The notes: generated from the letters alone by a model not told the origin. Shown: positions 793 through 24,000, counted from the stretch's first letter. The stretch: 24,000 bases of DNA from an uncultured Thiocystis sp. (GCF_903866365.1 NZ_CAIPNF010000070.1:1-24000); one strand, 5' to 3'. Program-made: numbers and translations.

Positions 793-1901
793 GCCGCGAG
801 CACGTCTTCCAGGGCGTCGATGAAGCGCGCGTTTTCTTGCACCAGACCCACGCTGATACGCAGATGATTCGGCAGACCGTAGTTGCCGACGGGACGCACG
901 ATGACGCCGCGATGGAGCAGGGCATCGTTGACCGGGCCGGCCGGGCGTCCGAGGTTGAGGGTGACGAAGTTGCCGACCGAGGGGATATAGTCGAGCCCCA
1001 GCCGGACGAACGCCTCGGTCAACTGTCGCATGCCGGCGCGGTTCAGCTCCACCGAGGCGCGCACATGTTCGCGGTCGGTGATGGCGGCGGCGGCGGCGGC
1101 CTGGGCCATGGCGTTGACGTTGAAGGGTTGACGGACCCGATTCAGCAGATCCGCCACGCGCGGATCGCTGATGCCATAACCGACCCGCAGCGCGGCCAGA
1201 CCGTGGGCCTTGGCGAAGGTGCGGGTGACGATCAGGTTCGGACAGCTTTCGATCCAGTGGGTGGTGTCCGGGAAATCCGGCTCGGACACATATTCGGTGT
1301 AGGCTTCGTCGATCACCGCCACACAGGTTTTCGGCAGTGCGCCGAGAAAGGACTTGAGCGCCTGCGCGGACAGCCAGGTTCCGGTCGGATTGTTGGGGTT
1401 GGCGATCCAGACGACGCGGGTCTGGTCGGTGACCAGCGCGGCCATGGCGTTAAGGTCATGACCATAATCGCGCGCAGTGGCGATCCGCGCGGTGGCGCCG
1501 ACGGCCTGAGTCGCGATCGGATAGACGGCAAAGGCGTACTCGGAAAACAGCGATTCGACACCGGGTTGCAGAAAGGTGCGTGCCACCAGATCCAGCACGT
1601 CGTTGGAGCCGTTGCCGAGCGTGATGGACGCCGGCGAAACGTTGTGGAAGTCTGCCAACACGCGGCGCAGATCGAAACCGCCGCCATCGGGATAGCGGCC
1701 GATTTCGTCCAGCATCGCCACGATGGCGGCCCGCGCCTTGGGTCCGGGTCCGAGCGGGTTTTCGTTCGAGGCCAGTTTCACCGAGTCGCGGATCCCGAGT
1801 TCGCGTTCCAGTTCCGAGATCGGCTTGCCCGGCACATAGGGCGTGAGTCCGGCGATCCAGGGGGCCGCAAAGGCCAGAAAGGGGTTGTCAGCTTGGCTCA
1901 T
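789..1901 (-). CDS. hisC: Histidinol-phosphate / aromatic aminotransferase (class II PLP aminotransferase)
   Basis: 370-aa ORF starting MSQADNPFLAFAAPWIAGLTPYVPGKPISELERELGI..VKLASNENPLGP, with later ..NPNNPTG.. and ..RTFAKAHGLAALRVGYG.. The SNENP, NPNNPTG and PLP-lysine context are HisC hallmarks. Sits between pheA and tyrA. Confidence 0.93.
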   Translation of the reverse strand: MSQADNPFLAFAAPWIAGLTPYVPGKPISELERELGIRDSVKLASNENPLGPGPKARAAIVAMLDEIGRYPDGGGFDLRRVLADFHNVSPASITLGNGSNDVLDLVARTFLQPGVESLFSEYAFAVYPIATQAVGATARIATARDYGHDLNAMAALVTDQTRVVWIANPNNPTGTWLSAQALKSFLGALPKTCVAVIDEAYTEYVSEPDFPDTTHWIESCPNLIVTRTFAKAHGLAALRVGYGISDPRVADLLNRVRQPFNVNAMAQAAAAAAITDREHVRASVELNRAGMRQLTEAFVRLGLDYIPSVGNFVTLNLGRPAGPVNDALLHRGVIVRPVGNYGLPNHLRISVGLVQENARFIDALEDVLAA

Positions 1902-2447: not shown

Positions 2448-3542
2448 TTACAACACGGCCACCGGATAGGATCCAAGGATCTTGAACAGCGGCGCGTCCT
2501 TCTCCAGATGCTCCAGGGCGGCGGTGACCGCCAGATCCTGGCGATGACCGAGGATATCGATAAAAAAGACATAATCCCAGATGCCCCGGCGCGAGGGGCG
2601 CGATTCGATCCGGGTCATGCTGATCCCGTGCGCGGCCAGCGGCATCAGCAAGGCGTGCAGACCGCCTGCCTGGTTGCGGCAGGAAAGCAGCAGACTGGTC
2701 TTGTCCTGACCGCTCGGCGGCGAATCCGCTTTGCCGATGACCAGAAAGCGGGTGGTGTTGCCGGGATCGTCCTCGATCCGTTCGGCGAGCACCGTCAGGC
2801 CGTAGATCTCGGCCGCCTGCAAACCGGCAACCGCCGCCGCCCCTGGCTCGGTCGCCGCCGTGCGCGCGGCGTCGGCGTTGCTTCCGACGGCAATCCGCTC
2901 GGCGTGGGGCAGGTGGCGGTCGAGCCAGCCGCGGCACTGGGCCAGCGATTGCTGATGGGAGTAAAGCACGCGAATCGCGCTCGGATTGGCATCATGACTC
3001 ATCAGATGATGATGAATCCGCAGCGTCACCTCGCCGGTGATTCGCAGCGGCGAACTCATGAAGAGATCCAGGGTATGACTGACCACGCCCTCGGTTGAGT
3101 TCTCCACCGGTACCACGCCGAAATCGCAGGCCCCGGATTCGACCTCGCGAAAGATCTCGTCGATGGTCGCCATGGCGCGGGTCACGACCGAATGGCCAAA
3201 GTGCTTGATCGCCGCGGCTTGGGTAAAGGTGCCTGCCGGCCCCAGAAAGGCCGTGTTGAGCGGGCGCTCCAGCGCCAGGCAGGCGGACATGATCTCGCGG
3301 AACAGGCGGGCGACCTCCTCGCTGTCCAGCGGCCCCGGATTGGCGTCCTTGATGCGGCGCAGTACCGCGACCTCGCGCTCCGGTCGATAGAACTGGACCT
3401 GGTCGCCATTGGATTCGGTTTTGAGATGCGCGACCCGCTGGGCGCAGCGGGCGCGTTCGCTGATCAGCCGCAATAACTCCTGATCGATGGCATCGATCCG
3501 GCTGCGTACCTGATCGAGCCCGTCGCTGCTGACTGTCGCCAT
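2448..3542 (-). CDS. pheA: Bifunctional chorismate mutase / prephenate dehydratase (P-protein) with C-terminal ACT domain
   Basis: MATVSSDGLDQVRSRIDAIDQELLRLISERARCAQRVAHLK (CM_2 domain), then FLGPAGTFTQAAAIKHFG (PDT domain), then SLLLSCRNQAGGLHALLMPLAAHGISMTRIESRP (ACT). I chose the start at ATG 3542 because GGAG lies about 10 nt upstream. The track extension to 3623 overlaps the serA 3' end. Confidence 0.92.
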   Translation of the reverse strand: MATVSSDGLDQVRSRIDAIDQELLRLISERARCAQRVAHLKTESNGDQVQFYRPEREVAVLRRIKDANPGPLDSEEVARLFREIMSACLALERPLNTAFLGPAGTFTQAAAIKHFGHSVVTRAMATIDEIFREVESGACDFGVVPVENSTEGVVSHTLDLFMSSPLRITGEVTLRIHHHLMSHDANPSAIRVLYSHQQSLAQCRGWLDRHLPHAERIAVGSNADAARTAATEPGAAAVAGLQAAEIYGLTVLAERIEDDPGNTTRFLVIGKADSPPSGQDKTSLLLSCRNQAGGLHALLMPLAAHGISMTRIESRPSRRGIWDYVFFIDILGHRQDLAVTAALEHLEKDAPLFKILGSYPVAVL

Positions 3543-3558
3543 GACGCGGGAACTCCGT

Positions 3559-4728
3559 TCAGCCGCCGAGCCGGCGGACCGAGAGCACGCCCGCGATGGA
3601 TTGAAGCTGGGCCAGCGTGTCATCGGGACAAGGCTTGTCGATATCGATGAGCGTCACCGCCACGTCGCCGCGCGAGCGGTTGAGCATGTCGAGGATATTG
3701 AGCCCGGCAGTGGCGAGATCGGTGGAAATCTGACCGACCATGTTCGGTACATTGCTGTTGACGATGGCCAGCCGCAGACCGCCATTGAGCGGCAGACAGA
3801 TCTCCGGGAAGTTGACCGCATTGGTGACGTTGCCGTTTTCCAGGTACTCGCGGATCTGATCGGCGACCATGATCGCGCAATTGTCCTCGGCCTCGCGGGT
3901 GGAGGCGCCCAGATGCGGCAGGGTCACGACGCGCGGATGGTTTTTCAGCAGGTTACTCGGAAAATCGCAGCAATAGGCGTAGAGATGGCCTTGATCCAAC
4001 GCGGCAACCACGGCGGCATCGTCGAGAATGCCCTCGCGGGAGAAGTTCAGCAGCACGGCGCCCTTGGGCAGGGTGCGGATGCGCTCGGCGTTGATCATGT
4101 GCCGGGTCTCGTCGGTGAGCGGCACATGGAAGGTAACGAAGTCCGAGCGCGAGAGCAGATCGTCGATGCTCAGGGCCGGCTGGACATCGCTGGCGAGCTG
4201 CCAGGCGCGGTGGACGGTGATGGTCGGATCGTAGCCGACGACCTTCATCCCCAGGGCGCGCGCGGCGTTGGCGACCTTGACGCCAATGGCGCCGAGTCCG
4301 ACCACGCCGAGAGTGCGACCGGGAAGCTCGAAGCCGCCGAATTGTTTCTTGCCGGATTCGACCGCCTGATTGATGGCGGTGTCGTCGCCTTCGAGCCCGC
4401 GTGCGAACTGCCACGCTTGCGCGATGTTGCGGGCGGCGATCAGCATGCCCGCGATCACCAGTTCCTTGACGGCGTTGGCGTTGGCGCCAGGGGCGTTGAA
4501 GACCGCCACGCCGCGTGCGGTCATAGCCGCGACCGGCACATTGTTGGTGCCGGCGCCGGCGCGTCCGATGGCCTTGACCGTGGCGGGGATCTCCATGTCG
4601 TGCATCTTGGCGGAGCGCACCAGGATGGCGTCCGGATGGGCGATCTCGGAGGCGACCTCGTAGCGGTCGCGCGGCAGGCGCTCCAACCCGGCCACGGAGA
4701 TATTATTCAGCGTTTGGATTTTGAACAT
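3559..4728 (-). CDS. serA: D-3-phosphoglycerate dehydrogenase (D-isomer 2-hydroxyacid dehydrogenase with C-terminal ACT-like domain)
   Basis: 389 aa. Contains the NAD-binding motif GVVGLGAIGVKVANAARALGMKVVGYDP, then ..FVTFHVPLTDETRHMIN.. and PHLGASTREA (catalytic His region). The C-terminal part, LAIVNSNVPNMVGQISTDLATAGLNILDMLN, is ACT-like. Lies next to serC. Confidence 0.85.
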   Translation of the reverse strand: MFKIQTLNNISVAGLERLPRDRYEVASEIAHPDAILVRSAKMHDMEIPATVKAIGRAGAGTNNVPVAAMTARGVAVFNAPGANANAVKELVIAGMLIAARNIAQAWQFARGLEGDDTAINQAVESGKKQFGGFELPGRTLGVVGLGAIGVKVANAARALGMKVVGYDPTITVHRAWQLASDVQPALSIDDLLSRSDFVTFHVPLTDETRHMINAERIRTLPKGAVLLNFSREGILDDAAVVAALDQGHLYAYCCDFPSNLLKNHPRVVTLPHLGASTREAEDNCAIMVADQIREYLENGNVTNAVNFPEICLPLNGGLRLAIVNSNVPNMVGQISTDLATAGLNILDMLNRSRGDVAVTLIDIDKPCPDDTLAQLQSIAGVLSVRRLGG

Positions 4729-6279: not shown

Positions 6280-9200
6280 CTAATCTTCCGCGTCGGTTTC
6301 CGAATCGCCGTCGTCTTCCGGATCCGGTTCGCCGTTTTCAATGGGATCGTCTTCCGGTGCGCGATGCTGCAGCGGATCTTCGGTCTCGCCGTTCTCTCCG
6401 TCGCTCTCCAGGGCCACGATCCGCTCGACATAGACCAGACGCTCGTTTTCGCTCAGGTTGATGAGTTTAACGCCCTGCGCGCTCCGACCGACGACCGGAA
6501 TCTGGTCCACACTGGTACGGATCAGGGTGCCGCCCTCGGTGATCAGCATGATCTCGTCGCCGGGACGCACCAGCACCGCGCCGACCTGGGCGCCGTTGCG
6601 CTCGGAGGTGCTGATGCCGATCACGCCCTGAGTGCCGCGCCCCTTGGTCGGGAAGTCCTCGACCCGGGTGCGTTTGCCATAACCGTTTTCGGTCACGCTG
6701 AGCACGGTTCCGGGCTCCGGTACCAGCAGCGAGATGACCCGCTGACCTTCCTGGAGACGCAGGCCGCGCACGCCATGCGCGGTGCGCCCCATGACGCGCA
6801 CATGGTCTTCGGAAAACCGCACCGCCTTGCCAGCGGAGGTAAAGAGCATCAGATCCCGATTGCCATCCGTGATCGCAACCCCGATCAGCACCTCGTCCTC
6901 GCGCAGATCGATGGCGATGATGCCGCGCGACAGTGGCCGCGAGAAATCCTTGAGCGGGGTCTTTTTCACCGTTCCGGCGCTGGTCGCCATGAACACGAAC
7001 AGCCCTTCCTCATACTCGCGGATCGGCAGCAGCGCATTGATGCGCTCGCCCGGCTCCAGCGGCAGCAGGTTGACCATGGGCCGCCCGCGCGCGCCCCGCC
7101 CGGAATGGGGCAGTTCGTAGACCTTGAGCCAGTAGACCCGGCCGCGACTGGAAAAACAGAGCACGGTATCGAGCGAGTTGGCGACGAAGATGCGGTCGAT
7201 GAAATCCTCTTCCCGGAACGAGGTCGCGCTCTTGCCCTTGCCGCCGCGCCGCTGGGCCTGATAATCGCTGATCGGCTGGGCCTTGACATAGCCCTGATGC
7301 GAGAGCGTCACCACCACATCCTCGGGATTGATCAAGTCCTCCAGGGTCAGATCCGTATGATCGACCTGGATCTCGGTGCGCCGGGCGTCGCCGAACTGCT
7401 CGCGAATGGCGACGAGTTCCTCGCGAATCACCTCCATCAGACGATCCGGATTCGACAGGATCAGCAACAATTCGGCGATTCGGTCCAGAATCTCCTCGAA
7501 TTCCTTGAGGATCTTCTCCTGCTCCAGACCGGTGAGCCGATGCAGTTGCAGATCCAGGATCGCCTTGGCCTGACGCTCGCTTAACCGATAGCCCGATTCG
7601 GTCAGACCGAACTCAGGTTCGAGATCCTCTGGACGCGTCTGATCCGCACCAGCGCGCGCCATCATCCCGGTCACGGCTCCAGGCGACCAGGCTCTCGCCA
7701 TCAGACGTTCACGCGCTTCGCCCGGATTCGCCGACGCCTTGATGGTGGCGATCACCTCGTCGATGTTCGCCAGCGCGATCGCGTAGCCTTCCAACACATG
7801 CGCCCGATTGCGGGCCTTGCGCAGCTCGAACAGCGTCCGGCGCGTCACCACCTCACGGCGATGACGCAGGAAATACTCCATGATCTGTTTGAGGCCGAGC
7901 GTGAGCGGTTGGCCATCCACCAGCGCCACCATGTTGATACCGAACACCTGCTGCATCTGGGTGTGCTGATACAGATTGTTCAGCAGCACCTCGGCATGGG
8001 CGTCGCGCTTGAGCTCGATGACGATCCGCATCCCGTCCTTGTCGGATTCGTCGCGCATCCCGTCCTGCGCGATGCCATCGATCTTTTTTTCCTTGACCAA
8101 CTCGGCGATACGTTCCAGCAGGCGCGCCTTGTTGACCTGATAGGGAATCTCAGTGACGACGATCGCCTCGCGTCCGCTGCGCTTCTGCACTTCGGTGATG
8201 GTGCGCGCGCGCATCACGCAGCGACCGCGTCCGGTGCGATAGGCTTCGCGGATGCCACGTACCCCATTGATCAGCGCCGCCGTCGGGAAATCCGGTCCCG
8301 GCACGATCTCCATGATCTCCTCGATGGTGATCAGCGGGTTCTCGATGATCGCTAGACAGGCATCGATGACCTCGCGCAGGTTATGCGGCGGGATATTGGT
8401 CGCCATGCCGACCGCGATCCCGGACGACCCATTGACCAGCAGATTGGGAAAGCGGGCGGGCAACACCGTGGGCTCATGCTCGGTATTGTCATAGTTCGGA
8501 ATGAAATCGACGGTTTCCTTGTCCAGATCGTCCAGCAGCGCATCGGCGAGGCGCATCATGCGCACCTCGGTGTAACGCATGGCCGCGGGCGGATCGCCGT
8601 CGACGGAGTTATGGACGAACACGCCAGCGGCTAACAGGAAATTGTGGTGCTCATCGACCGTGATGTCGTAGGTGTCCGCCGTTTCATCGAGCATGCGCAT
8701 TGCCACGACACGGTGATTATGATTTTTTCCTGCCTCAAGCAATGCCGAAAAATCGCCGAAGTATTCGACGGCCTTGGTCATGCGAGGAATCCAGTTCTGG
8801 CGACGCTGGTCTTCGTATAATTCGGGAGTCATCTCCTGGTCTGGAAACGCTTTGATCAAGTTATAGACATAACCGGAAATTTTACGGCGCATCACCTGCT
8901 GGCGATACTCCGCTGTCCGCCAATTCATCCGTAAGGACTCGACCGCCTTGCCATTGATATCCCGCATCATGTCGGGATGATCCGCAAGACGTCGGGCATT
9001 GGCGGCGCGCACTCCTTGCCTTTGCGCTTCGCGGAATTCCTCGCTCTCCCGTTGCCGCGCGATTTTCTCGCCATGCAGAACGCGGCTTTCCGGTTTTGCC
9101 CACAGGAGATGCGCCATCCGTACAAAATGATCGTCGGAAAATTTGGCGCGATACTCTGGATTACGCCAGTTGCGTTTCGCGGCATGGCTGATTTTCGAGC

Positions 9201-10494
9201 GAATCTCTTCCGATGCCAGCGCGCGACAGATCGCCGCGACGATCTGTCCCCGCTTCTCGTCGTCACGCCACATGAGTTTGCTTTTTTCGGAAACGATCCG
9301 CGCAATCCTGGCTTGATCGTCGTCCGACAGCGGACGTTTTTCGAGACCAGACAGGGCATTGGACATCTGTTCACGATAGTCCGCATCCTGCCAGAGCTCC
9401 CGCATCCGCTCCGTAATCGCCGTGCGCGCATCGGGATGATTGGTGTAATAACGGCGCAATCCGATCGAGGTACGCCCGGCGTTCTGCGTTTTGAAGGATG
9501 CATCCTGATTCTGTGCGATGAAACGCTGCCTTCGCTCATCCACAACATCGGGATGTTCCGCGTAATACCGCTGCACTGACTGTCTCTGCGCACTCCGGAA
9601 ATCCGGGTCATTCCAAAGCTCTTTAATCTGCCCGGCATGCAGATGCAGGTGATCCAAAAAGGTCATTCGTTGAATATTGGACGGGCTATTGTCCCAACGG
9701 TTGAAATTTTTATGATGCCTGACAAAAGACCCTGACGAATCTGTCAGGCCACGTTCCGCATTAAATTCGTCGGCCAAATGATGAACGAACTGATATTGGC
9801 CGAGATTGGGCTGGAAGACACGCAGATAGTCATTCATGCCCTGCTTGACTGGCGCCGTGTCGAAAACCCCCGGCATCAGGCTGTCGTCGGGCGTCAGCGC
9901 CTGGGCTTCCTTATAGGTTCCGTCGCGCAGCATGAACCGATGGTCGGGTGTGCAGCGGATGGCGACACCATGATCGAGCGTCAGCTCCATGAGCGCGGTC
10001 TCGGGACGGGTCACGCGCGAATAACGACCCTCGGCGATGACGATCTTGCCGGTCTTGTCGACCGCATAGACATGGAACCTCTCGTCCGGTGGCAGCTTCG
10101 CCAGTTCCGCGAAAGTTTTTTCGGTGCCGTCGGCAAGTTTGATGGCGGTATCGCCAGTAAAACACCCGAAGTTACCTTGCCCATCCACCAGCAGATAACG
10201 CAGCGAAAAACGCTGGGCCATGCGGACCATGGTGTCGTAGATGGCCGAATCGCCATGCGGGTGATACTTACCCATGACATCGCCGACCACGCGGGCGGAC
10301 TTGCGATAGGCGCGGTTCCAGACATTGCCCTGCTCGCTCATGGAGAACAGAACCCGTCGATGCACGGGCTTGAGACCGTCGCGGACATCCGGCAGCGCCC
10401 GCCCCACGATCACGCTCATGGCGTAATCGAGATAGGACTTGCGCATCTCGTCCTCAAGATTGATGGGGATGACTTCTCTGGCGAAATCTGGCAT
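6280..10494 (-). CDS. gyrA: DNA gyrase subunit A, interrupted by an in-frame 519-aa intein (885-aa extein)
   Basis: N-terminus [54 protein letters not shown] is ..[20 protein letters not shown] (Ser83/Asp87 wild type). The active-site region is split as LVDGQGNFG|intein|[17 protein letters not shown]. Six GyrA C-terminal beta-pinwheel repeats and an acidic tail (..[12 protein letters not shown]) follow. Confidence 0.97.
8608..10164 (-). mobile_element. Class-1 intein with an HNH homing-endonuclease domain, inserted in GyrA between Gly110 and Ser111
   Basis: Begins with Cys (TGT, 10164..10162) as [13 protein letters not shown] (block A). Block B is CTPDHRF (TxxH). The HNH core, FVHH...[29 protein letters not shown], is at about 9637-9792. 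Blocks F/G are [22 protein letters not shown], followed by +1 Ser (8605-8607). GC is about 50-55% versus about 63-65% in the flanking extein. Confidence 0.9.
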
Positions 10495-10689: not shown

Positions 10690-11103
10690 TCAAGTGGGCG
10701 TCTGCTGCTGTTCGATGTACTGACGCACGATCGAAATCGGTGCGCCGCCGCAGGACGCGGCGAAGTAGGAGGGCGACCAAAGCACGCCTTTCCAGTAGCG
10801 CCGCTCGATGTCCTGCCGCTCCTGACGGAGCAACCGGCTGGACACGCCCTTGAGGCTATTCACCAGGGCGGACACCGCGACCTTGGGCGGGTACTCGACC
10901 AGCAGGTGAACATGATCGTCCTCGCCATCCATCTCGACCAAGGTGGCCTCGAAGTCGGCACAGACCTTGGCGAAGATCGCGCGCAGGCTGGCGATGGCCT
11001 CGCCGTCGAAGACCTTGCGGCGGTATTTGGTCACAAAGACCAAATGGACGTGCATCGCAAAAATGCAGTGCCTACCTCGCCGAATATCGTTGTCATTGTT
11101 CAT
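10690..11103 (-). CDS. tnpA: IS200/IS605-family Y1 (HUH) transposase TnpA
   Basis: 137 aa. Contains MHVHLVFVTKYRRKVF, the HUH motif DHVHLLVEYPP, ..WSPSYFAASCGGAPISIVRQYIEQQ (catalytic Tyr region). Confidence 0.95.
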   Translation of the reverse strand: MNNDNDIRRGRHCIFAMHVHLVFVTKYRRKVFDGEAIASLRAIFAKVCADFEATLVEMDGEDDHVHLLVEYPPKVAVSALVNSLKGVSSRLLRQERQDIERRYWKGVLWSPSYFAASCGGAPISIVRQYIEQQQTPT

Positions 11104-11124
11104 AGACCAAAGTATACTCTAGCG

Positions 11125-12363
11125 ATGCAACGTCTCCAAGCCTTCAAGTTTGAGTTGATGCCGAACGGCGAGCAAGCGCGCGACCTGCGCCGCTTCGCGG
11201 GATCGTGCCGCTTCGTCTTCAACCGGGCGCTGGCATTGCAGCAGGAGCGCCATGCGACCGGCGAGAAGAAACTCGGATATGCCGATCTTTGCAGTGCGCT
11301 GACCGAGTGGAAGGCCGACCCATCAACAGCCTGGCTCTGCGACACGCCCTCTCAAGCCTTGCAGCAGTCCCTTAAGGATCTGGACCGGGCCTACACCAAT
11401 TTCTTCGCCAAACGCGCCGACGCGCCCCGCTTCAAGAAGAAAGGCCAGTCGCGCGACAGCCTGCGCTATCCCCAGGGCGTCAAGCTCGACCAAGCCAACG
11501 GTCGCCTGTTCCTGCCCAAGCTCGGTTGGCTACGCTACCGCAACAGCCGCGAGGTGCTCGGGGCGGTAAAGAATGTCACCGTCAGCCAGTCAGTCGGCAA
11601 GTGGTTCGTCGCGATCCAGACCGAACGTGCGGTCGAAATCCCGGTGCATCAGGGGACGGCGGTCGGGGTCGATGTGGGCGTTGTCCGCTTCGCCACCTTG
11701 AGCGACGGGACGGTCTACGCCCCGTTCAACAGCTTCAAACGCCTCGAACAGGCGCTCGCCAAGGCCCAGCAGGCGATGAGCCGCAAGACCAAGTTCAGCA
11801 ACAACTGGAAGAAAGCGAAAGCCCAGGTCCAGCGCATCCATGCCAAAATCGCCAACGCCCGCCACGACTATCTGCATAAGACCTCGGCCACGATCAGCAA
11901 AAACCACGCGCTCGTGTTCGTCGAAGATTTGCAGGTCAAAAATATGTCCGCGTCGGCAGCCGGGACGATGGACGCGCCGGGCACCAATGTTCGAGCCAAG
12001 TCCGGCCTGAACAAGGCGATTCTCGATCAGGGATGGGGTGAGTTTCGCCGGCAACTGGACGACAAGACGGTGTGGACGGGCGGACACTTGATCGCGGTGC
12101 CGCCGCACTACACCAGCCAGACCTGCCCGTGCTGCGGGCATACCGCCAAGGAGAACCGGCAGACGCAAGCCCGGTTCGCGTGCGTCGCATGCGGCTTCGA
12201 GGAAAACGCCGATTTGGTCGGCGCGATCAATATTCTAAGGGCAGGACATGCCCGGTTAGCCTGTGAAGTGAGCCCCGCTGGGGGCCAGCAGCAGGAACCC
12301 GCCGAAGCGATTCGCTCAGGCTCGACGCCTCAGCGAGTCGCCGTAGGAATCCCCGTCCTTTAG
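11125..12363 (+). CDS. tnpB: TnpB (IS605 OrfB) RNA-guided RuvC-type endonuclease
   Basis: Starts MQRLQAFKFELMPNGEQARDLRRFAGSCRFVFNRAL. RuvC-I is AVGVDVGVVRFATLSDG, RuvC-II is ALVFVEDLQVKNM, the zinc finger is CPCCGH..(13)..CVACGF, and RuvC-III is ENADLVGAINIL, so the D/E/D triad is intact. The track start at 10906 is an antisense extension over tnpA. ATG 11125 is the first start outside tnpA. Confidence 0.93.
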   Translation: MQRLQAFKFELMPNGEQARDLRRFAGSCRFVFNRALALQQERHATGEKKLGYADLCSALTEWKADPSTAWLCDTPSQALQQSLKDLDRAYTNFFAKRADAPRFKKKGQSRDSLRYPQGVKLDQANGRLFLPKLGWLRYRNSREVLGAVKNVTVSQSVGKWFVAIQTERAVEIPVHQGTAVGVDVGVVRFATLSDGTVYAPFNSFKRLEQALAKAQQAMSRKTKFSNNWKKAKAQVQRIHAKIANARHDYLHKTSATISKNHALVFVEDLQVKNMSASAAGTMDAPGTNVRAKSGLNKAILDQGWGEFRRQLDDKTVWTGGHLIAVPPHYTSQTCPCCGHTAKENRQTQARFACVACGFEENADLVGAINILRAGHARLACEVSPAGGQQQEPAEAIRSGSTPQRVAVGIPVL

Positions 12364-20192: not shown

Positions 20193-20254
20193 CGGATGAT
20201 GTCCTCATTTGCAGGGATCTTTGGTTGACTGAAGCGTTGCGGTCACCGTCGCTC

Positions 20255-20296
20255 GGTCCGCACAGCGGACCCGACGTAGGGTCCGCTGTGCGGACC
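20255..20296. repeat. REP doublet (REPIN-like): two head-to-head GT(A/C)G-GGTCCGC-TGT-GCGGACC units
   Basis: ggtccgcacagcggaccc (20255-20272) is the perfect reverse complement of gggtccgctgtgcggacc (20279-20296), with loop gacgta. Each arm is itself a 7-bp hairpin (GGTCCGC/GCGGACC). Lies in the DUF4381-batA spacer. Confidence 0.75.
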
Positions 20297-20327
20297 ATCC
20301 GCCGATCGGTTCTGCCCGGAACGACGA

Positions 20328-20888
20328 TCAAGTCCAACGAAAAGTTCGGGAGAGTGTTGTCCGGAAACCGCCTGTAGGCGTCGTCTCGCGGGTCGTCACC
20401 CAGCCCTCGACCGCTTCGATCAGGGCCAGTATTTGAGGGTCCTCACCATGGCCCGCCGGAGCATAGGGCGCGTCCAGTAGAACCCGGCCGCGTTCGCGCC
20501 ACCGAAAGCCCTTGGGATCGTGCGTCTCCAGCCAGTCGAGCCAGTCGTTTCCCGTCAAGCCGGCGCAGGCGGGGCGTCCGAGCCGCGCCATGGCGATGCG
20601 GCGCAGCAATTCGGACAGCTCGCCAGCAGTTCGCTTGGCATCCTGCCCAGCGCGCGCGCGCCGTCGCAGATCGCGCAGCGCGCCCGCCGCGTCCCAGCGC
20701 CAGCTTCCGAGCGTGAGTCCAGGGATTGGAATCCGCAGGCTGAGGACCGCGCGCCAGCGCCAGACGGCAAAGGTCAGCAGCAGCATGGCGAGCGCCAGCA
20801 GCCACCAGCCGGGCGCGAGCGGCCACCAGGGGATCGCTGAAATATCATGGATATCCCGAAGCTGTTGCATGGGTGTCATCGGTTCCAT
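20328..20888 (-). CDS. DUF4381-like small membrane protein of MoxR/Bat operons
   Basis: MEPMTPMQQLRDIHDISAIPWWPLAPGWWLLALAMLLLTFAVWRWR.. fits the DUF4381 pattern (L.DI....v.wWP.apGWw + TM helix). ATG 20888 shares one nucleotide with the DUF58 stop (TGATG). The track ORF up to 21131 is an overlap artefact. Confidence 0.7.
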   Translation of the reverse strand: MEPMTPMQQLRDIHDISAIPWWPLAPGWWLLALAMLLLTFAVWRWRAVLSLRIPIPGLTLGSWRWDAAGALRDLRRRARAGQDAKRTAGELSELLRRIAMARLGRPACAGLTGNDWLDWLETHDPKGFRWRERGRVLLDAPYAPAGHGEDPQILALIEAVEGWVTTRETTPTGGFRTTLSRTFRWT

Positions 20889-21805
20889 CAGACCGCCCGC
20901 GAGCGCGCGCGCTGTTCGAGATCGCGGATCAGGGTCAGGTGGATTTCCGTATCCGTGCGCACCGGCAACAGCACGATCCGCAGACGATGAGCCATGGCCT
21001 GAAGCCGGTCGCGTCGATCCTCCCAGCGCTGGCGGTAGAGTCGTCTTGCGTGCGGATCGTCGGTATCGATCTCGATCAGTGCGCCATCGGTGCCGGTGAA
21101 GGTGGTCACGCCCATGGATGGAATCTCCCAATCGGCCGGATCGTCCACTGGAATCAGTGCGACGGTGTTGCGTTGGCTGAGATCGCCGAGCACCTGCTCC
21201 AGCCCCAGCGTATCGCGGTTCAGATCCGCGATCACGAACACCAGCGATCCGGTTGGCAGACCCGAGCAGGCCCGCCGCAAGGCGCCGCCCAGACAGTCGA
21301 TGGACGGGTCCATGTCGGCGCCGGGTTCGGTCAGCGTGCGCAACAATTGCCAGAGCGCCCGCCGTCCGCGCGAGGGCCGGAAATGCTGGAGTCCGGTCTG
21401 CGGATCGCCGAACACCAGGCCGCCCACGCGGTCGTTCAGACGGCTGGCGGCCCAGCCGATCAGCGCCGCCGCCCGCGCCGTCTGCACCGACTTGAAGGTG
21501 CCGCGCGTGCCGAAACTCATGTGCGGCCCCTTGTCGACACAGAGCACCACCGAACGCTCGCGCTCCTCGCGGAAGATTTTCAGGTGCGGTCGGTTGGTGC
21601 GGGCCGTCACCTTCCAGTCCATATAGCGGATATCGTCGCCCTCGCGGTACTCGCGCACCTCCTCGAAGTTGACGCCCGCGCCACGGAACACCGAGGCATA
21701 GAGTCCGGCGAAGGTGGAATTCACCAGATGGTGCGACGGCAGGCCCAGCGTATGGGCCTGATGGCGCAGCTCCAGCAGATCATCGAGTCGGGGGTAGAGG
21801 CTCAT
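20888..21805 (-). CDS. DUF58-family protein (VWA-like, MoxR partner)
   Basis: ..ASVFRGAGVNFEEVREYREGDDIRYMDWKVTARTNRPHLKIFREERERSVVLCVD.. is the DUF58 signature. Confidence 0.88.
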   Translation of the reverse strand: MSLYPRLDDLLELRHQAHTLGLPSHHLVNSTFAGLYASVFRGAGVNFEEVREYREGDDIRYMDWKVTARTNRPHLKIFREERERSVVLCVDKGPHMSFGTRGTFKSVQTARAAALIGWAASRLNDRVGGLVFGDPQTGLQHFRPSRGRRALWQLLRTLTEPGADMDPSIDCLGGALRRACSGLPTGSLVFVIADLNRDTLGLEQVLGDLSQRNTVALIPVDDPADWEIPSMGVTTFTGTDGALIEIDTDDPHARRLYRQRWEDRRDRLQAMAHRLRIVLLPVRTDTEIHLTLIRDLEQRARSRAV

Positions 21806-21849
21806 TCTTGAATCAAGTTGTCAGTTGCTAAAGTGGCTCTTGATCGATT

Positions 21850-22011
21850 TCATCTGCTTCGATCAGATCGCCAACCACTGAAACAAGCGAAATAGAGGGG
21901 GGCGGCATCGTCCCGAACAAGATCGAGCAGGCTGTTGAGAAAATCCGTGGTCTGCTCATCGTCGCTTTCTGACTCGATATGCGACACTGGGTGCGTTGTT
22001 AGCATTTTCAT
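21850..22011 (-). CDS. Hypothetical small acidic protein (53 aa), translationally coupled to the SEC-C protein
   Basis: [56 protein letters not shown] 22011 overlaps the upstream stop as ATGA. No domain recognised, and coding status is unproven. Confidence 0.4.
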
Positions 22012-22283
22012 GCGACGAATGTACTTGACGTACCACAGCATTTCTTAAATTTCTTGCCGCTCCCACAAGGGCATGGATCATTTCTCGCTACCTTGTTTGA
22101 GGCAGCCGGTTTTACCGGGTTTAACATTTTTTCTAAATCTGAAATATCCTCTGGTTTGTCAGGTTCAAAACCAATAATGAAATGCCAACCATGTTCATTA
22201 CATTTTTCCGCGACGTATCCTGCCTTTTCATCTGTATGTACACGAACAATAATCGGTCTTTTTTCTGTTCCTAGTTTTGCCAT
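22008..22283 (-). CDS. Small SEC-C / SWIM metal-binding-motif protein (91 aa)
   Basis: [54 protein letters not shown]...[18 protein letters not shown]. The C-terminal [13 protein letters not shown] is the SecA-C-terminal-type zinc motif. Codon usage is AT-rich (about 40% GC) and foreign to this genome. The track N-terminal extension to 22451 crosses a GC-rich non-coding stretch. Confidence 0.75.
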
Positions 22284-22446
22284 GGCTATTTCTATTAAGT
22301 TTGTTATGTTTGGTGCATCGCGGTAGCGGCCAGTTGCCCGACCGACCCCGCACAGATCCCCGCATGCGGAACTACCGCACGGGGCCACGCGGGGGCTGAA
22401 GTGAAAGTCAAGCGGCCACGCTGGGACGGCGTTGCAGATTGAGTAC

Positions 22447-22478
22447 CGCACCGTCTGCGGGGTCCGCTCTTTAACCGC
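22447..22478. repeat. 32-nt direct repeat, copy 1 (REP-head-related)
   Basis: cgcaccgtctgcggggtccgctctttaaccgc matches 23095-23126 at 30 of 32 positions. It shares G(T/C)(A/G)GGGTCCGCT with the REP head at 20276. Confidence 0.8.
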
Positions 22479-22513
22479 GTGTAGGTTAAAGCCTGATACC
22501 TTTCCCCCTGTGG

Positions 22514-22975
22514 TTACTCGGCGACGATGTGCCCTCGCGTTCCGGCATCGGAATCGGACCAGACGTCCTCATTCTTCAAGCGCCGATCACCCTGGATGGT
22601 GTAGGTCATCGTGCCATCCTTGAAGACAAGAGCGCCGTCACTGCGCTTGGCGTTCACTTTCTTTCCGCTGACCCAGACATGTTCTTTGCTATCGATCCGG
22701 ATGGTGGCGACCGTTGCTCCTGACTTGGCTTTAGCCACCCATTGTCCGGCATAAGGGGTGTGGTGCGTGGCGCTCCCTGTGTCGGCGGTGGCTTCCGAAA
22801 CAAAACCGGCCTTGGCATTCTCTTCCTTGGTTTTGGTGATGTCGCAGCCCTGTGACTCGGAGACTTGCGTGCAGCCGGAGCGCTCGAGTTGTTGCCTGTA
22901 TTTTGCGTCGATTGCATGGGCGGAAGTGTGTGCCAACAGAGCAACACTGGCGGCGATGATTAATTTCTTCTTCAT
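22514..22975 (-). CDS. Hypothetical secreted protein (153-aa precursor)
   Basis: Signal peptide [21 protein letters not shown]|IDAKY. GAGG lies 9 nt upstream of ATG 22975. Two Cys residues early in the mature part, with a beta-rich C-terminal half. No family recognised. Confidence 0.65.
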
Positions 22976-23094
22976 CGATTCTGACCTCGTTCGGATTGAT
23001 TGGATGAATTGCACGGAGTTAATTTGAATTAGAAGTGCAACGCCTGAAAGGGCAGGTTAGCGGTCTTGCTGGCATGACGTCTCAGAATAAGCGC

Positions 23095-23126
23095 CGCGCC
23101 GTCTGTGGGGTCCGCTCTTTAACCGC
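23095..23126. repeat. 32-nt direct repeat, copy 2
   Basis: cgcgccgtctgtggggtccgctctttaaccgc. See copy 1; the two copies bracket the secreted-protein gene. Confidence 0.8.
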
Positions 23127-23257
23127 TTGCATAATAGCGGTAACCACTTTGTTTTCTAGCCGTTTTTGGAAATCTGATCATTAACCATGCATCCAGGAAA
23201 TTAGAAAGCTTCGGCAATGAAGGCGTGATCTCGGCGCTGCAATAGAGAATGACTGCA

Positions 23258-23473
23258 TTAAGCCGCTTCTGATGTTAATGCCCGAGTTTCCTGATCGATT
23301 TTCTGCAAAGCCCTTTGAATATGGTCAACTTCATTTTCTTCGAAAAGCGCTTCTCCGCATTGAGTGCATACCCAGGCGGGAATTGATTCCCATGTAATAT
23401 GATAACCGTTTCGGTCCACACTAAATGGTGCAGTTTCTCTAATCATTTTCCCTTTGCAATGAAGGCATTCCAT
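23258..23473 (-). CDS. YgiT-type zinc-finger protein (MqsA-N-terminal-like putative antitoxin)
   Basis: MECLHCKGKMIRETAPFSVDRNGYHITWESIPAWVCTQCGEALFEENEV.. has the CxxC...CxxC YgiT finger. It overlaps the upstream DUF4258 gene by 35 nt. Confidence 0.8.
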   Translation of the reverse strand: MECLHCKGKMIRETAPFSVDRNGYHITWESIPAWVCTQCGEALFEENEVDHIQRALQKIDQETRALTSEAA

Positions 23474-23777
23474 CCTGCTTCCTCACTTTAAAGTCTGGCG
23501 ACCACAGATCAGGTGATGGCAAATATGCGGTAATCACCGCCAAGTATTCGATTTTTGGCGCACAGACGACATGGATCGTGCGACATCGTGTTGAATGTGT
23601 GATCAGGCAGCTTTCTCCTCGTTGATCATCTGGATATTCTTCGATGATTTCGCCGGAGAATACCGTTTCTCGCACTTCATCGGTGCCGATCATTCTGTCA
23701 GGACGAGACATTTGTTTGATCGCATGAGGCAGGAAAAGTATTTTTCTGCTTGCGGCTGCGATAACTTTTTGCTTCAT
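23439..23777 (-). CDS. DUF4258-domain protein (putative RNase-type toxin)
   Basis: ..ILFLPHAIKQMSRPDRMIGTDEVRETVFSGEIIEEYPDDQRGESCLITH..RTIHVVCAPKIEYLAVITAYLPSPDLW.. matches the DUF4258 pattern (HA..rM.eR.I...ev..v...g.iiE.Yp.D.rg.s.Li...lHvV.a......vITvY.P). The toxin-first order resembles mqsRA. Confidence 0.75.
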   Translation of the reverse strand: MKQKVIAAASRKILFLPHAIKQMSRPDRMIGTDEVRETVFSGEIIEEYPDDQRGESCLITHSTRCRTIHVVCAPKIEYLAVITAYLPSPDLWSPDFKVRKQDGMPSLQREND

Positions 23778-23800
23778 GTCTTACGAATGATTCACCATCT

Positions 23801-23826
23801 ACATCAGGGAATCACATCAGGGAATC
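23801..23826. repeat. Perfect 13-bp tandem duplication spanning the moxR stop codon
   Basis: acatcagggaatc (23801-23813) is followed directly by acatcagggaatc (23814-23826). The second copy holds the last moxR codons and its stop (tca, 23817-23819). Confidence 0.9.
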
Positions 23827-24000
23827 GCCACCAACGTCAACAACCGATTCACAAAGGCATCCGTGGTCACGCCCTCGGCCTCGGCCTCGAAGGTCAGCAA
23901 AATCCGATGCCGCAGGATCTCGGGCGCGACGGACTGGATATGCTGGGGCGTGACGAAGGTGTCGCCGTCCAGCCAGGCGCGGGCGCGGGCGCAGCGGGCG
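23817..24000 (-). CDS. moxR: MoxR-family AAA+ ATPase, C-terminal 60 codons (5' part lies beyond the right edge)
   Basis: My translation is ..ARARAWLDGDTFVTPQHIQSVAPEILRHRILLTFEAEAEGVTTDAFVNRLLTLVAIP*, which matches the MoxR C-terminal lid region (V.P.di..la..vL.HRi.l..eA...g). The operon context also fits. Confidence 0.8.
   Translation of the reverse strand, partial: ARCARARAWLDGDTFVTPQHIQSVAPEILRHRILLTFEAEAEGVTTDAFVNRLLTLVAIP

Follow-up and report, generated by a model that had tools for sequence, protein, structure and literature searches.

Probable integron-type gene cassettes without a neighboring integrase in the moxR/DUF58 spacer of an uncultured Thiocystis

Introduction

What lies between moxR and the DUF58 gene in an uncultured Thiocystis sp., and how did it get there without a mobility gene of its own? 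We analyzed a stretch of 24,000 nucleotides from this organism (NZ_CAIPNF010000070.1, positions 1–24000; hereafter the window, meaning the whole stretch), in which moxR is separated from the rest of a moxR-DUF58-bat operon by about 2 kb of DNA. A preliminary description, made from the sequence without database searches, had seen here a foreign "cassette cluster" inserted at the junction of the two genes. The analysis presented below indicates, with a probability that we put at roughly 80%, that this island consists of a few integron-type gene cassettes in a row, without an integron integrase next to them.

Results

Spacer repeats and their relatives

The island was described as having two long non-coding spacers with shared repeats, and a repeat search bore this out. 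The spacers are 243 and 230 nt in length and share an 86-nt repeat (22396–22481 and 23044–23129) with 74% identity and a 35-nt near-identical core. The 18-nt repeat core occurs twice in the window against 0.01 occurrences expected by chance. Scanning one genome per species for this core gave ten loci: four in Chromatiaceae (two in Thiocystis minor, one each in Thiorhodococcus drewsii and Chromatium okenii), one in a Desulforhabdus metagenome-assembled genome, and five in which the surrounding sequence is unrelated.

Integron integrases recombine attC sites as folded bottom strands. The sites have inner (L'' and L') boxes and outer (R) boxes; cutting takes place within the R boxes, of which R'' ends with AAC and R' begins with GTT (RYYYAAC ... 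GTTRRRY). The copies from T. minor (L003) and Desulforhabdus (L007) carry the end boxes GGCTAAC...GTTAACT and ACCTAAC...GTTAGAC, respectively, and fold as single imperfect hairpins of 94–96 nt with unpaired bases, some of them in the inner stem formed by GGTTAA/TTAACC and GCGG(A)CCCC/GGGGCCGC. This predicted hairpin is of the integron attC architecture. In the Desulforhabdus locus two such hairpins bracket one open reading frame (ORF), and in T. drewsii (L006) a copy lies approximately 1.9 kb downstream of an integron integrase ORF, with low-GC small ORFs between the two. The integrase ORF reaches 265.7 bits with TIGR02249 (cut-off 265) and is disrupted in its middle. Downstream of it, at positions 1590–1760 (minus strand) of the same locus, a cluster of TCTAAAT/TCTAGAT repeats is followed by GTTAGGT and then by low-GC cassettes; this may be the attI site of an integron whose integrase gene and cassettes point the same way.

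A covariance model (R1) built solely from the outside copies L003, L006 and L007 was used to scan the 24-kb window. This search yielded exactly two full-length matches and nothing else, both of them 3' of their island gene and on the sense strand (attC-A and attC-B in Table 1). By these scores and by the position of the L006 copy the two repeats are akin to sites found beside an integrase or in arrays, and we assign them, from their sequence, to an attC family found in the integron contexts of other Chromatiaceae. The term "cassette cluster" turns out to be literally right.

The arrangement of the island is that of cassettes as well. An integron cassette has one or two ORFs after a short leader and then an attC in the same orientation, and such units are co-oriented and about 0.5–1 kb long. 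It consists of three units, all oriented along the operon, and the genes of the operon and of the island all lie on the minus strand. The 741- and 648-bp units each end in a repeat of the attC family. Moreover, one of the island genes is found as a cassette elsewhere: P0155, a homologue of the SEC-C protein encoded on an unrelated metagenome contig (L106), has a canonical 94-nt attC directly 3' of its gene (4285–4378). The neighborhood of another SEC-C homologue, P0122, is a row of small co-oriented ORFs.

Mobility genes

The preliminary description had pointed out that no integrase, transposase or tRNA is present that could explain how the island moved. As to the genes this stands: no integrase or transposase was recognized among the island ORFs with Pfam and NCBIfam, no integrase domain was found among the ORFs scanned against Pfam in window positions 1–21805, and a tRNA scan of the window was empty. 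As to the mechanism it does not, since attC repeats offer one. A complete integron is not seen, there being no intI in the window and no recognizable attI-like repeats at the left edge of the island; nor does the island resemble a tRNA- or integrase-associated island or a transposon, the single direct repeat at an edge being a tandem 13-mer on one side. On the moxR side, 184 nt are visible beyond the island, all of them moxR; relatives have typA/bipA as the next gene on that side. Searches of plasmid and phage collections returned no block-level similarity to the island, which is therefore not a wholesale transfer out of any known plasmid or phage.

Boundaries and composition of the island

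The separation of moxR and the DUF58 gene was reproduced from the stop and start coordinates, the moxR end at 23817 and the DUF58 start at 21805 leaving exactly 2011 bp. The foreign segment itself appears to be narrower (about 21829–23783), because homology with relatives reaches 21828 on the DUF58 side (blastn) and approximately 23784 on the moxR side (by eye). The moxR DNA of the window is 82–86% identical to that of the loci L013 (T. violacea), L014 and L015 (T. drewsii AZ1), and the DUF58 protein shares 98% amino-acid identity with T. minor P0001. In T. violacea, TGGTGAGTGACATTGG directly follows the moxR stop codon, as compared by eye. The 13-nt tandem duplication at the moxR end sits inside a 19-nt stretch absent from T. 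violacea; a target-site duplication is ruled out, both copies being on one side of the island.

Coupling within the operon was checked in detail at three junctions below DUF58, where the genes had been described as tightly coupled. DUF58 and DUF4381 overlap by 1 nt and batA and batB by 8 nt, in agreement with that description, as is the 135-nt spacing between DUF4381 and batA, the exception made there. At this last junction (20205–20378) the window exceeds T. minor, whose DUF4381 and batA overlap by 8 nt, by about 150 nt that include a perfect 17-bp palindrome (GGTCCGCACAGCGGACC ... GGTCCGCTGTGCGGACC); the operon seems to have received a second small insertion here.

A windowed GC analysis supported the claim that the island is AT-rich. 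Its GC content is 0.495 compared with 0.631 for positions 1–21805, and elsewhere no stretch of 2011 nt has less than 0.557 (mean 0.628, standard deviation 0.029). Within the island the GC content differs from unit to unit, as the values of the individual genes in Table 1 illustrate, together with their GC content at third codon positions (GC3).

Table 1. Features at the moxR/DUF58 junction, in minus-strand order (positions are those of the window)
Feature	Position or length	Strand	Evidence and remarks	GC	GC3
moxR 3' end	23817–24000	-	AAA_lid_2, Pfam PF17863, 1.8e-15; TGA stop codon 23819–23817		
13-nt tandem duplication (GATTCCCTGATGT x2)	23801–23826	-	covers moxR stop codon; repeat search and comparison with L013		
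Native moxR 3' flank TGGTGAATCATTC	23785–23797	-	compared by eye with T. violacea		
GTAAGAC, left island edge	23778–23784	-	directly before ATG of cassette 1		
Unit 1 (cassette 1)	~741 bp	-	DUF4258/YgiT toxin-antitoxin pair (predicted), then attC-A		
DUF4258 protein, putative toxin (cassette 1 gene a)	23439–23777	-	PF14076, 2e-17	0.46	0.45
YgiT-type zinc finger, MqsA N-terminal-like, putative antitoxin (cassette 1 gene b)	23258–23473	-		0.43	0.33
attC-A (attC-family repeat)	23041–23135	-	R1 53.8 bits, E 5e-14, full length, non-standard pairs; 3' of cassette 1		
Unit 2 (cassette 2)	648 bp	-	secreted protein, then attC-B		
Secreted 153-aa protein (cassette 2)	22514–22975	-	signal-peptide-like N-terminus	0.565	0.68
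attC-B (attC-family repeat)	22394–22487	-	R1 71.9 bits, E 8e-20; 3' of cassette 2		
Unit 3	566 bp	-	GC-rich leader, SEC-C gene, frameshifted small gene; without recognizable attC		
GC-rich leader of unit 3	22310–22393	-	partial copy of attC-B right half and GC hairpin; repeat search		
SEC-C gene, 91-aa SWIM/SEC-C metal-binding-motif protein, PBPRA1643 family	22008–22283	-	TIGR04102, PF02810	0.406	0.30
Frameshifted pseudogene (earlier "acidic mini-ORF")	21828–22011	-	frame 1 22011–21850 (53-aa ORF), then +1 frame		
Native DUF58 leader CAACTGACAACTTGATTCAAGA	21806–21827	-	common to T. minor and T. violacea; blastn homology starts at 21828 or 21827		
DUF58 gene	20888–21805	-	PF01882, 2e-40; ATG at 21805; heads downstream part of operon		
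DUF58, batA and batB (host reference)				0.66–0.69	0.81–0.84

Genes of the island

Five small co-oriented ORFs had been listed for the island. The domain or feature calls hold for four of them, and the fifth, the acidic mini-ORF, is a frameshifted pseudogene. Unit 1 has the makings of a type II toxin-antitoxin system, with adjacent overlapping small genes that contain both domain families and a function that is predicted. The putative antitoxin scores 38.7 bits with TIGR03831 (cut-off 20.2) and matches PF15731 at 4.5e-6, which is below the cut-off of that family; it is without the helix-turn-helix half of MqsA. The two ORFs overlap by 35 nt in different frames (23439–23473), an unusually long overlap, and the DUF4258 protein may have acquired a C-terminal extension through the loss of its original stop codon. 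For the secreted protein of unit 2, Pfam, NCBIfam and PADLOC searches gave no match; it has 924 homologues, mostly of 153 aa, unannotated and from diverse sources. The SEC-C protein of unit 3 reaches 79.4 bits with TIGR04102 (cut-off 68). The leader that precedes it contains CCCCGCGTGGCCCCGTG, to be compared with CCCAGCGTGGCCGCTTG in the right half of attC-B, and by this similarity may be an attC remnant.

The mini-ORF overlaps the SEC-C stop codon. Searched against 1.8 billion representatives, it found itself as the sole strong match. Two weak matches, P0366 and P0367, align to its residues 5–41, and their C-termini (...SLVSLVGDLIEAYESDREPL) match the +1-frame ORF at 21828–21959, homology continuing in this frame to the stop codon at 21830–21828. 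Because the C-termini of the homologues match the +1 frame, we regard the mini-ORF as the frameshifted pseudogene of a small unannotated protein. L105 and L111, in which the locus was assembled independently, carry the identical frameshift. The mini-ORF was also considered as a possible HigA-type antitoxin N-terminal domain, an assignment that was dropped because Pfam, NCBIfam and PDB sequence searches were empty.

PADLOC called no defense system on the island, its E2-like models being matched by the SEC-C motif alone. Rfam gave no match at its gathering score anywhere in the window, and we regard the two sub-threshold matches within the island as noise.

The junction in relatives

The proposal of a foreign insertion could be assessed from 71 distinct moxR-DUF58 junctions collected from genomes and metagenomes. 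The gap is at most 100 bp in 46 of the 71, with a median of 75 bp, and exceeds 700 bp at five junctions, the window included. Gaps of near relatives, such as L022 (81 bp), L017 (75 bp) and Thioflavicoccus mobilis (L016, 89 bp), are GC-rich and unconserved in sequence; L022 is a relative with 90% DUF58 identity. The empty site is thus a short, GC-rich, poorly conserved spacer. Among the larger gaps of relatives none shares sequence with the island, whose genes occur at this place in none of the relatives. Together with the deviation in GC content this supports a foreign insertion between moxR and DUF58.

Disturbance of the junction is not unique to the window, several Chromatiaceae carrying other, unrelated inserts there. 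The gap of T. drewsii AZ1 (L015) measures 2677 bp with a GC content of 0.44 and contains an intact 85-nt attC (-32 kcal/mol) and a HicA-containing gene pair. That of L014 (1479 bp) has an entirely different content between flanks that are 96–97% identical to those of L015; the homology of the two loci ends exactly after ...CAACTGTTAG and resumes 32 nt before DUF58. The L091 gap (2005 bp) holds other genes. In T. violacea (L013) the gap of 713 bp includes a DUF7220 gene on the opposite strand, together with a palindrome of 81 nt. Finally, L025 has the 3' end of a group II intron, with its domain V/VI at 27–98 (RF00029, 46 bits, gathering score 40), 415 nt upstream of DUF58. The junction is, in this bacterial group, a recurrent landing place for mobile DNA.

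Some details of these loci are worth recording. The T. violacea palindrome (3776–3856) is near-perfect (GATTAACAGGATTCC...GGAATCCTGTTAATC) and built of AATCCTGT repeats, and a related motif sits just upstream of DUF58 in L014. At 3300–3960, L014 carries a 178-aa gene, resembling by eye a transposase of the tyrosine type associated with repetitive extragenic palindromes (REP) and flanked by inverted REP-like hairpins (gcgtaggatgtggtgaggaacgaaccgcatc...); a solo copy of this hairpin lies at 3395–3445 of L015, inside a possible second T. drewsii attC. The L025 contig, whose DUF58 identity is 90%, begins inside the group II intron. In T. minor, the closest relative with a sequenced genome (L011, NHSQ01000051, 1–6000), moxR is absent upstream of DUF58, and a response-regulator-like gene, a short-chain dehydrogenase, a HAD hydrolase, a methyltransferase and a serine hydroxymethyltransferase are found there, which suggests a rearrangement with its breakpoint at the moxR/DUF58 junction.

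State of the recombination sites

Several observations weigh against the assignment of the island to integron cassettes, and most of them concern the state of the recombination sites. attC-A retains an intact left inner half and has degenerate outer (R) boxes as well as a partly degenerate inner stem; the left box reads ATTATGC and the right one ...TTCAGG, with no GTT at the expected distance. In attC-B the inner boxes and the central stem are kept, and the outer boxes read AACCTAC and TTCAGCC. The outer stems pair in neither copy. Thus AAC/GTT boxes are absent from both copies of the window, whereas they are present in L003, L007, L015 and L106. A generic scan for AAC...GTT hairpins gave no candidate past its thresholds in the island; these thresholds at first also missed the T. 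drewsii attC, and the scan is unspecific (11 matches in 43 kb of GC-rich control sequence), so it was used only together with sequence context and supports canonical sites solely where that context agrees. Unit 3 ends without an attC. At the right-hand edge of the island there is neither a G|TT junction nor any recombination signature, and the DUF58-side end was probably shaped by deletion or another kind of recombination. The left edge offers just a 6/7 match, GTAAGAC, to GTTAGAC, the R' closing box of the L007 attC (consensus GTTRRRY); as a possible recombination junction it is suggestive only. Furthermore, the link to integrons comes from other genera, the source DNA being the 24-kb window and two short sister contigs, and the placement among integrase-less attC clusters discussed below depends on the family-specific model R1; IntegronFinder might not call these copies.

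With neither copy retaining AAC/GTT boxes and with no attC in the last unit, excision of the array is probably no longer possible, and the array would be a fossil. The sequence GCTAAC directly 3' of the SEC-C stop codon was tried as the start of a third attC and rejected, as no hairpin follows and it lies within the coding sequence of the pseudogene.

One of the sister contigs, L111, is 99.5% identical to the window over 1701 nt. Its positions 1–38, facing 23135–23098, begin with 13 nt of unrelated sequence and show three mismatches to the left half of attC-A. For this variant left end there are two readings, another upstream cassette in that population and an artefact of the contig end.

Other features of the window

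An IS605-family OrfB/TnpB gene lies on the plus strand at 10906–12363, at a distance of 9.4 kb from the island, with OrfB_IS605, Cas12f1-like TNB and helix-turn-helix domains; no TnpA was seen with it. At 6280–10494 (minus strand) a GyrA of 1404 aa contains an intein, the Intein_splicing match covering residues 119–629 between the two halves of the topoisomerase domain. The GC content of the intein region is lower (0.56–0.58).

Discussion

Arrival and expression of the cassettes

For the arrival of the cassettes in the moxR/DUF58 spacer we propose two routes: recombination into this spacer as a secondary site, by an integron integrase whose gene lies elsewhere in the genome, or homologous exchange with a relative already carrying an array there. 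Because the cassettes point along the operon, they would most likely be transcribed by read-through from the moxR promoter, which would act as the cassette promoter, and DUF58-batABCD would depend on read-through across 2 kb. We infer such co-transcription as the default. The other possibility raised earlier, that the island supplies a new promoter for DUF58-batABCD, found no support: a sigma-70-like consensus scan of the island gave 3 sites (1.6 expected), none of them upstream of DUF58 on the gene strand, and promoter and terminator consensus counts are not above those of shuffled sequence. Neither repeat fits the terminator pattern of the scan, which gives no support for a terminator in the island. 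The array would then have decayed in place, possibly held by its toxin-antitoxin pair. Toxin-antitoxin pairs stabilize chromosomal integrons (PMC13108822), and by analogy the pair may stabilize the segment in the window.

Alternative explanations

A more far-reaching explanation, which we consider unlikely, is that the locus is a live satellite integron platform, with an attI-like site after moxR, a moxR promoter that drives the cassettes and a distant integrase that keeps exchanging them. The comparison of L014 and L015 invites it, with entirely different cargo between nearly identical flanks and a divergence that starts at one exact point, at a GTTAG. In both loci the approximately 90 nt that follow moxR contain repeated GTCTAG, ATCTAG and GTCTAA and then CTAA-N7-TTAG, and similar TCTARAT repeats followed by GTTAGGT are seen by eye downstream of the T. 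drewsii integrase gene. There is also the intact attC of the T. drewsii gap, and L111, the same locus in another sample, departs from the window only in its first ~38 nt, within attC-A. However, the likeness to attI was judged by eye, partly against attI1, the 90-nt region of L014 and L015 has no similarity to any other locus compared, and the window itself has degenerate end boxes, a last unit without attC and a left flank without TCTAG motifs. Moreover, the gap also takes up a REP-associated transposase-like gene (by eye), palindromes resembling miniature inverted-repeat transposable elements (MITE) and a group II intron, and such varied mobile DNA fits a merely permissive spacer. It is doubtful that the Thiocystis/Thiorhodococcus group has, in its moxR-DUF58 spacer, a conserved place where integron cassettes dock at a distance from any integrase gene; if it had, a housekeeping operon would double as a second cassette-expression platform, and each change of cassettes would alter the expression of DUF58-batABCD.

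That the repeats have nothing to do with integrons, being REP- or MITE-like palindromes or terminators in an island acquired, for instance, through homologous recombination in the flanks after gene transfer, is improbable. The missing end boxes of the window copies and the right-hand edge without attC would fit such an origin, as would the REP-like hairpins and other palindromes in the gap of relatives and the palindromic insert at DUF4381/batA in the window. Yet the copies of the family outside the window show canonical end boxes and the attC fold, they bracket single ORFs, and one of them lies beside an integron integrase gene; in 24 kb there are two copies only, both exactly 3' of island genes, and the terminator pattern fits neither. 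A chimera, in which the assembler would have joined unrelated contigs through repeated attC sequence, is a natural concern for a metagenome-derived contig, all the more as assemblies are interrupted at attC repeats elsewhere (the ends of L005 and L009 fall there) and as L111 disagrees with the window over its first 13 nt, within attC-A. We nevertheless hold it to be highly improbable, since L105 (JGI) and L111 (ENA) repeat the arrangement, from attC-A or the secreted-protein gene through DUF58, with 99.5% identity, and since no repeat lies at the junction between moxR and cassette 1, where the native 3' flank of moxR persists. The chance that these are ancestral genes of the operon, lost in other lineages, is close to negligible: several Thiocystis and Thiorhodococcus relatives also hold something in the gap, but their cargo is unrelated from genome to genome, GC and GC3 lie far under the host values and vary by unit, and most relatives, including L022, have short GC-rich gaps.

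Significance

Read as an array of integron-type cassettes, an island without a mobility gene becomes explicable by its own spacers, which would be integron recombination sites served by an enzyme acting from elsewhere in the genome. It would be an example of orphan cassettes wedged between operon genes that are normally adjacent, oriented for expression from a host promoter, and then decayed. The gap is occupied by other cargo in related purple sulfur bacteria, including cassettes with an intact attC, a transposase-like gene (by eye) and a group II intron; the spacer may be either unusually permissive or a preferred docking site, and in the latter case the turnover of cassettes would be tied to the expression of a Bat-type operon. 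The attC family defined here could also be used to find integron arrays in genomes of Chromatiaceae.

Comparison with known systems

Below DUF58 the window follows the MoxR-DUF58-DUF4381-BatA-BatB-TPR-BatD (Bat/aerotolerance-type) operon of its relatives in gene order and coupling; it differs from them in having 2011 bp where their moxR-DUF58 gap has a median of 75 bp.

A sedentary chromosomal integron, represented by T. drewsii L006, shares with the window the attC sequence family and the low-GC small ORFs, and the presence of a toxin-antitoxin cassette in the array is another likeness, such cassettes being present in sedentary arrays (PMC13108822). Unlike such an integron, the window has no intI, no recognizable attI and no dedicated cassette promoter, and the gene upstream of its cassettes is the co-oriented moxR.

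Insertion of cassettes at secondary genomic sites, termed attG, has been described (bioRxiv 10.1101/2022.09.11.507474). The cassettes of the window resemble these insertions in lying outside attI, downstream of a resident promoter within a spacer of the chromosome, and in having an orientation that allows expression, and their left edge, G|TAAGAC, is near the G|TTRRRY junction. Reported attG insertions are however mostly single cassettes (bioRxiv 10.1101/2022.09.11.507474), whereas the window holds a multi-unit array; its right junction lacks the signature of attC-G plus WT, and the occupation of this gap in several genera goes beyond what is predicted for a random GWT site.

The closest likeness is to the attC-site clusters without an integron integrase (CALINs; Cury et al. 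2016, PMC4889954), for which cassette insertion at secondary genomic sites is one proposed origin (bioRxiv 10.1101/2022.09.11.507474). A CALIN has at least two attC sites within 4 kb, as called with the covariance model of IntegronFinder. As in CALINs, the attC-family sites of the window are 648 bp apart, each of them 3' of a co-oriented, apparently promoterless small gene, and no integrase occurs within the 21.8 kb seen on one side of the island. The array is small, as most CALINs are, and its cassette genes are mostly of unknown function, one unit being a toxin-antitoxin pair. It is unlike CALINs in the degenerate end boxes of both copies, in a last unit without attC, and in being placed between two translationally tight genes of a conserved operon. 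Elements of this kind have already been described, and the window adds to them a decayed array inside the moxR-bat operon.

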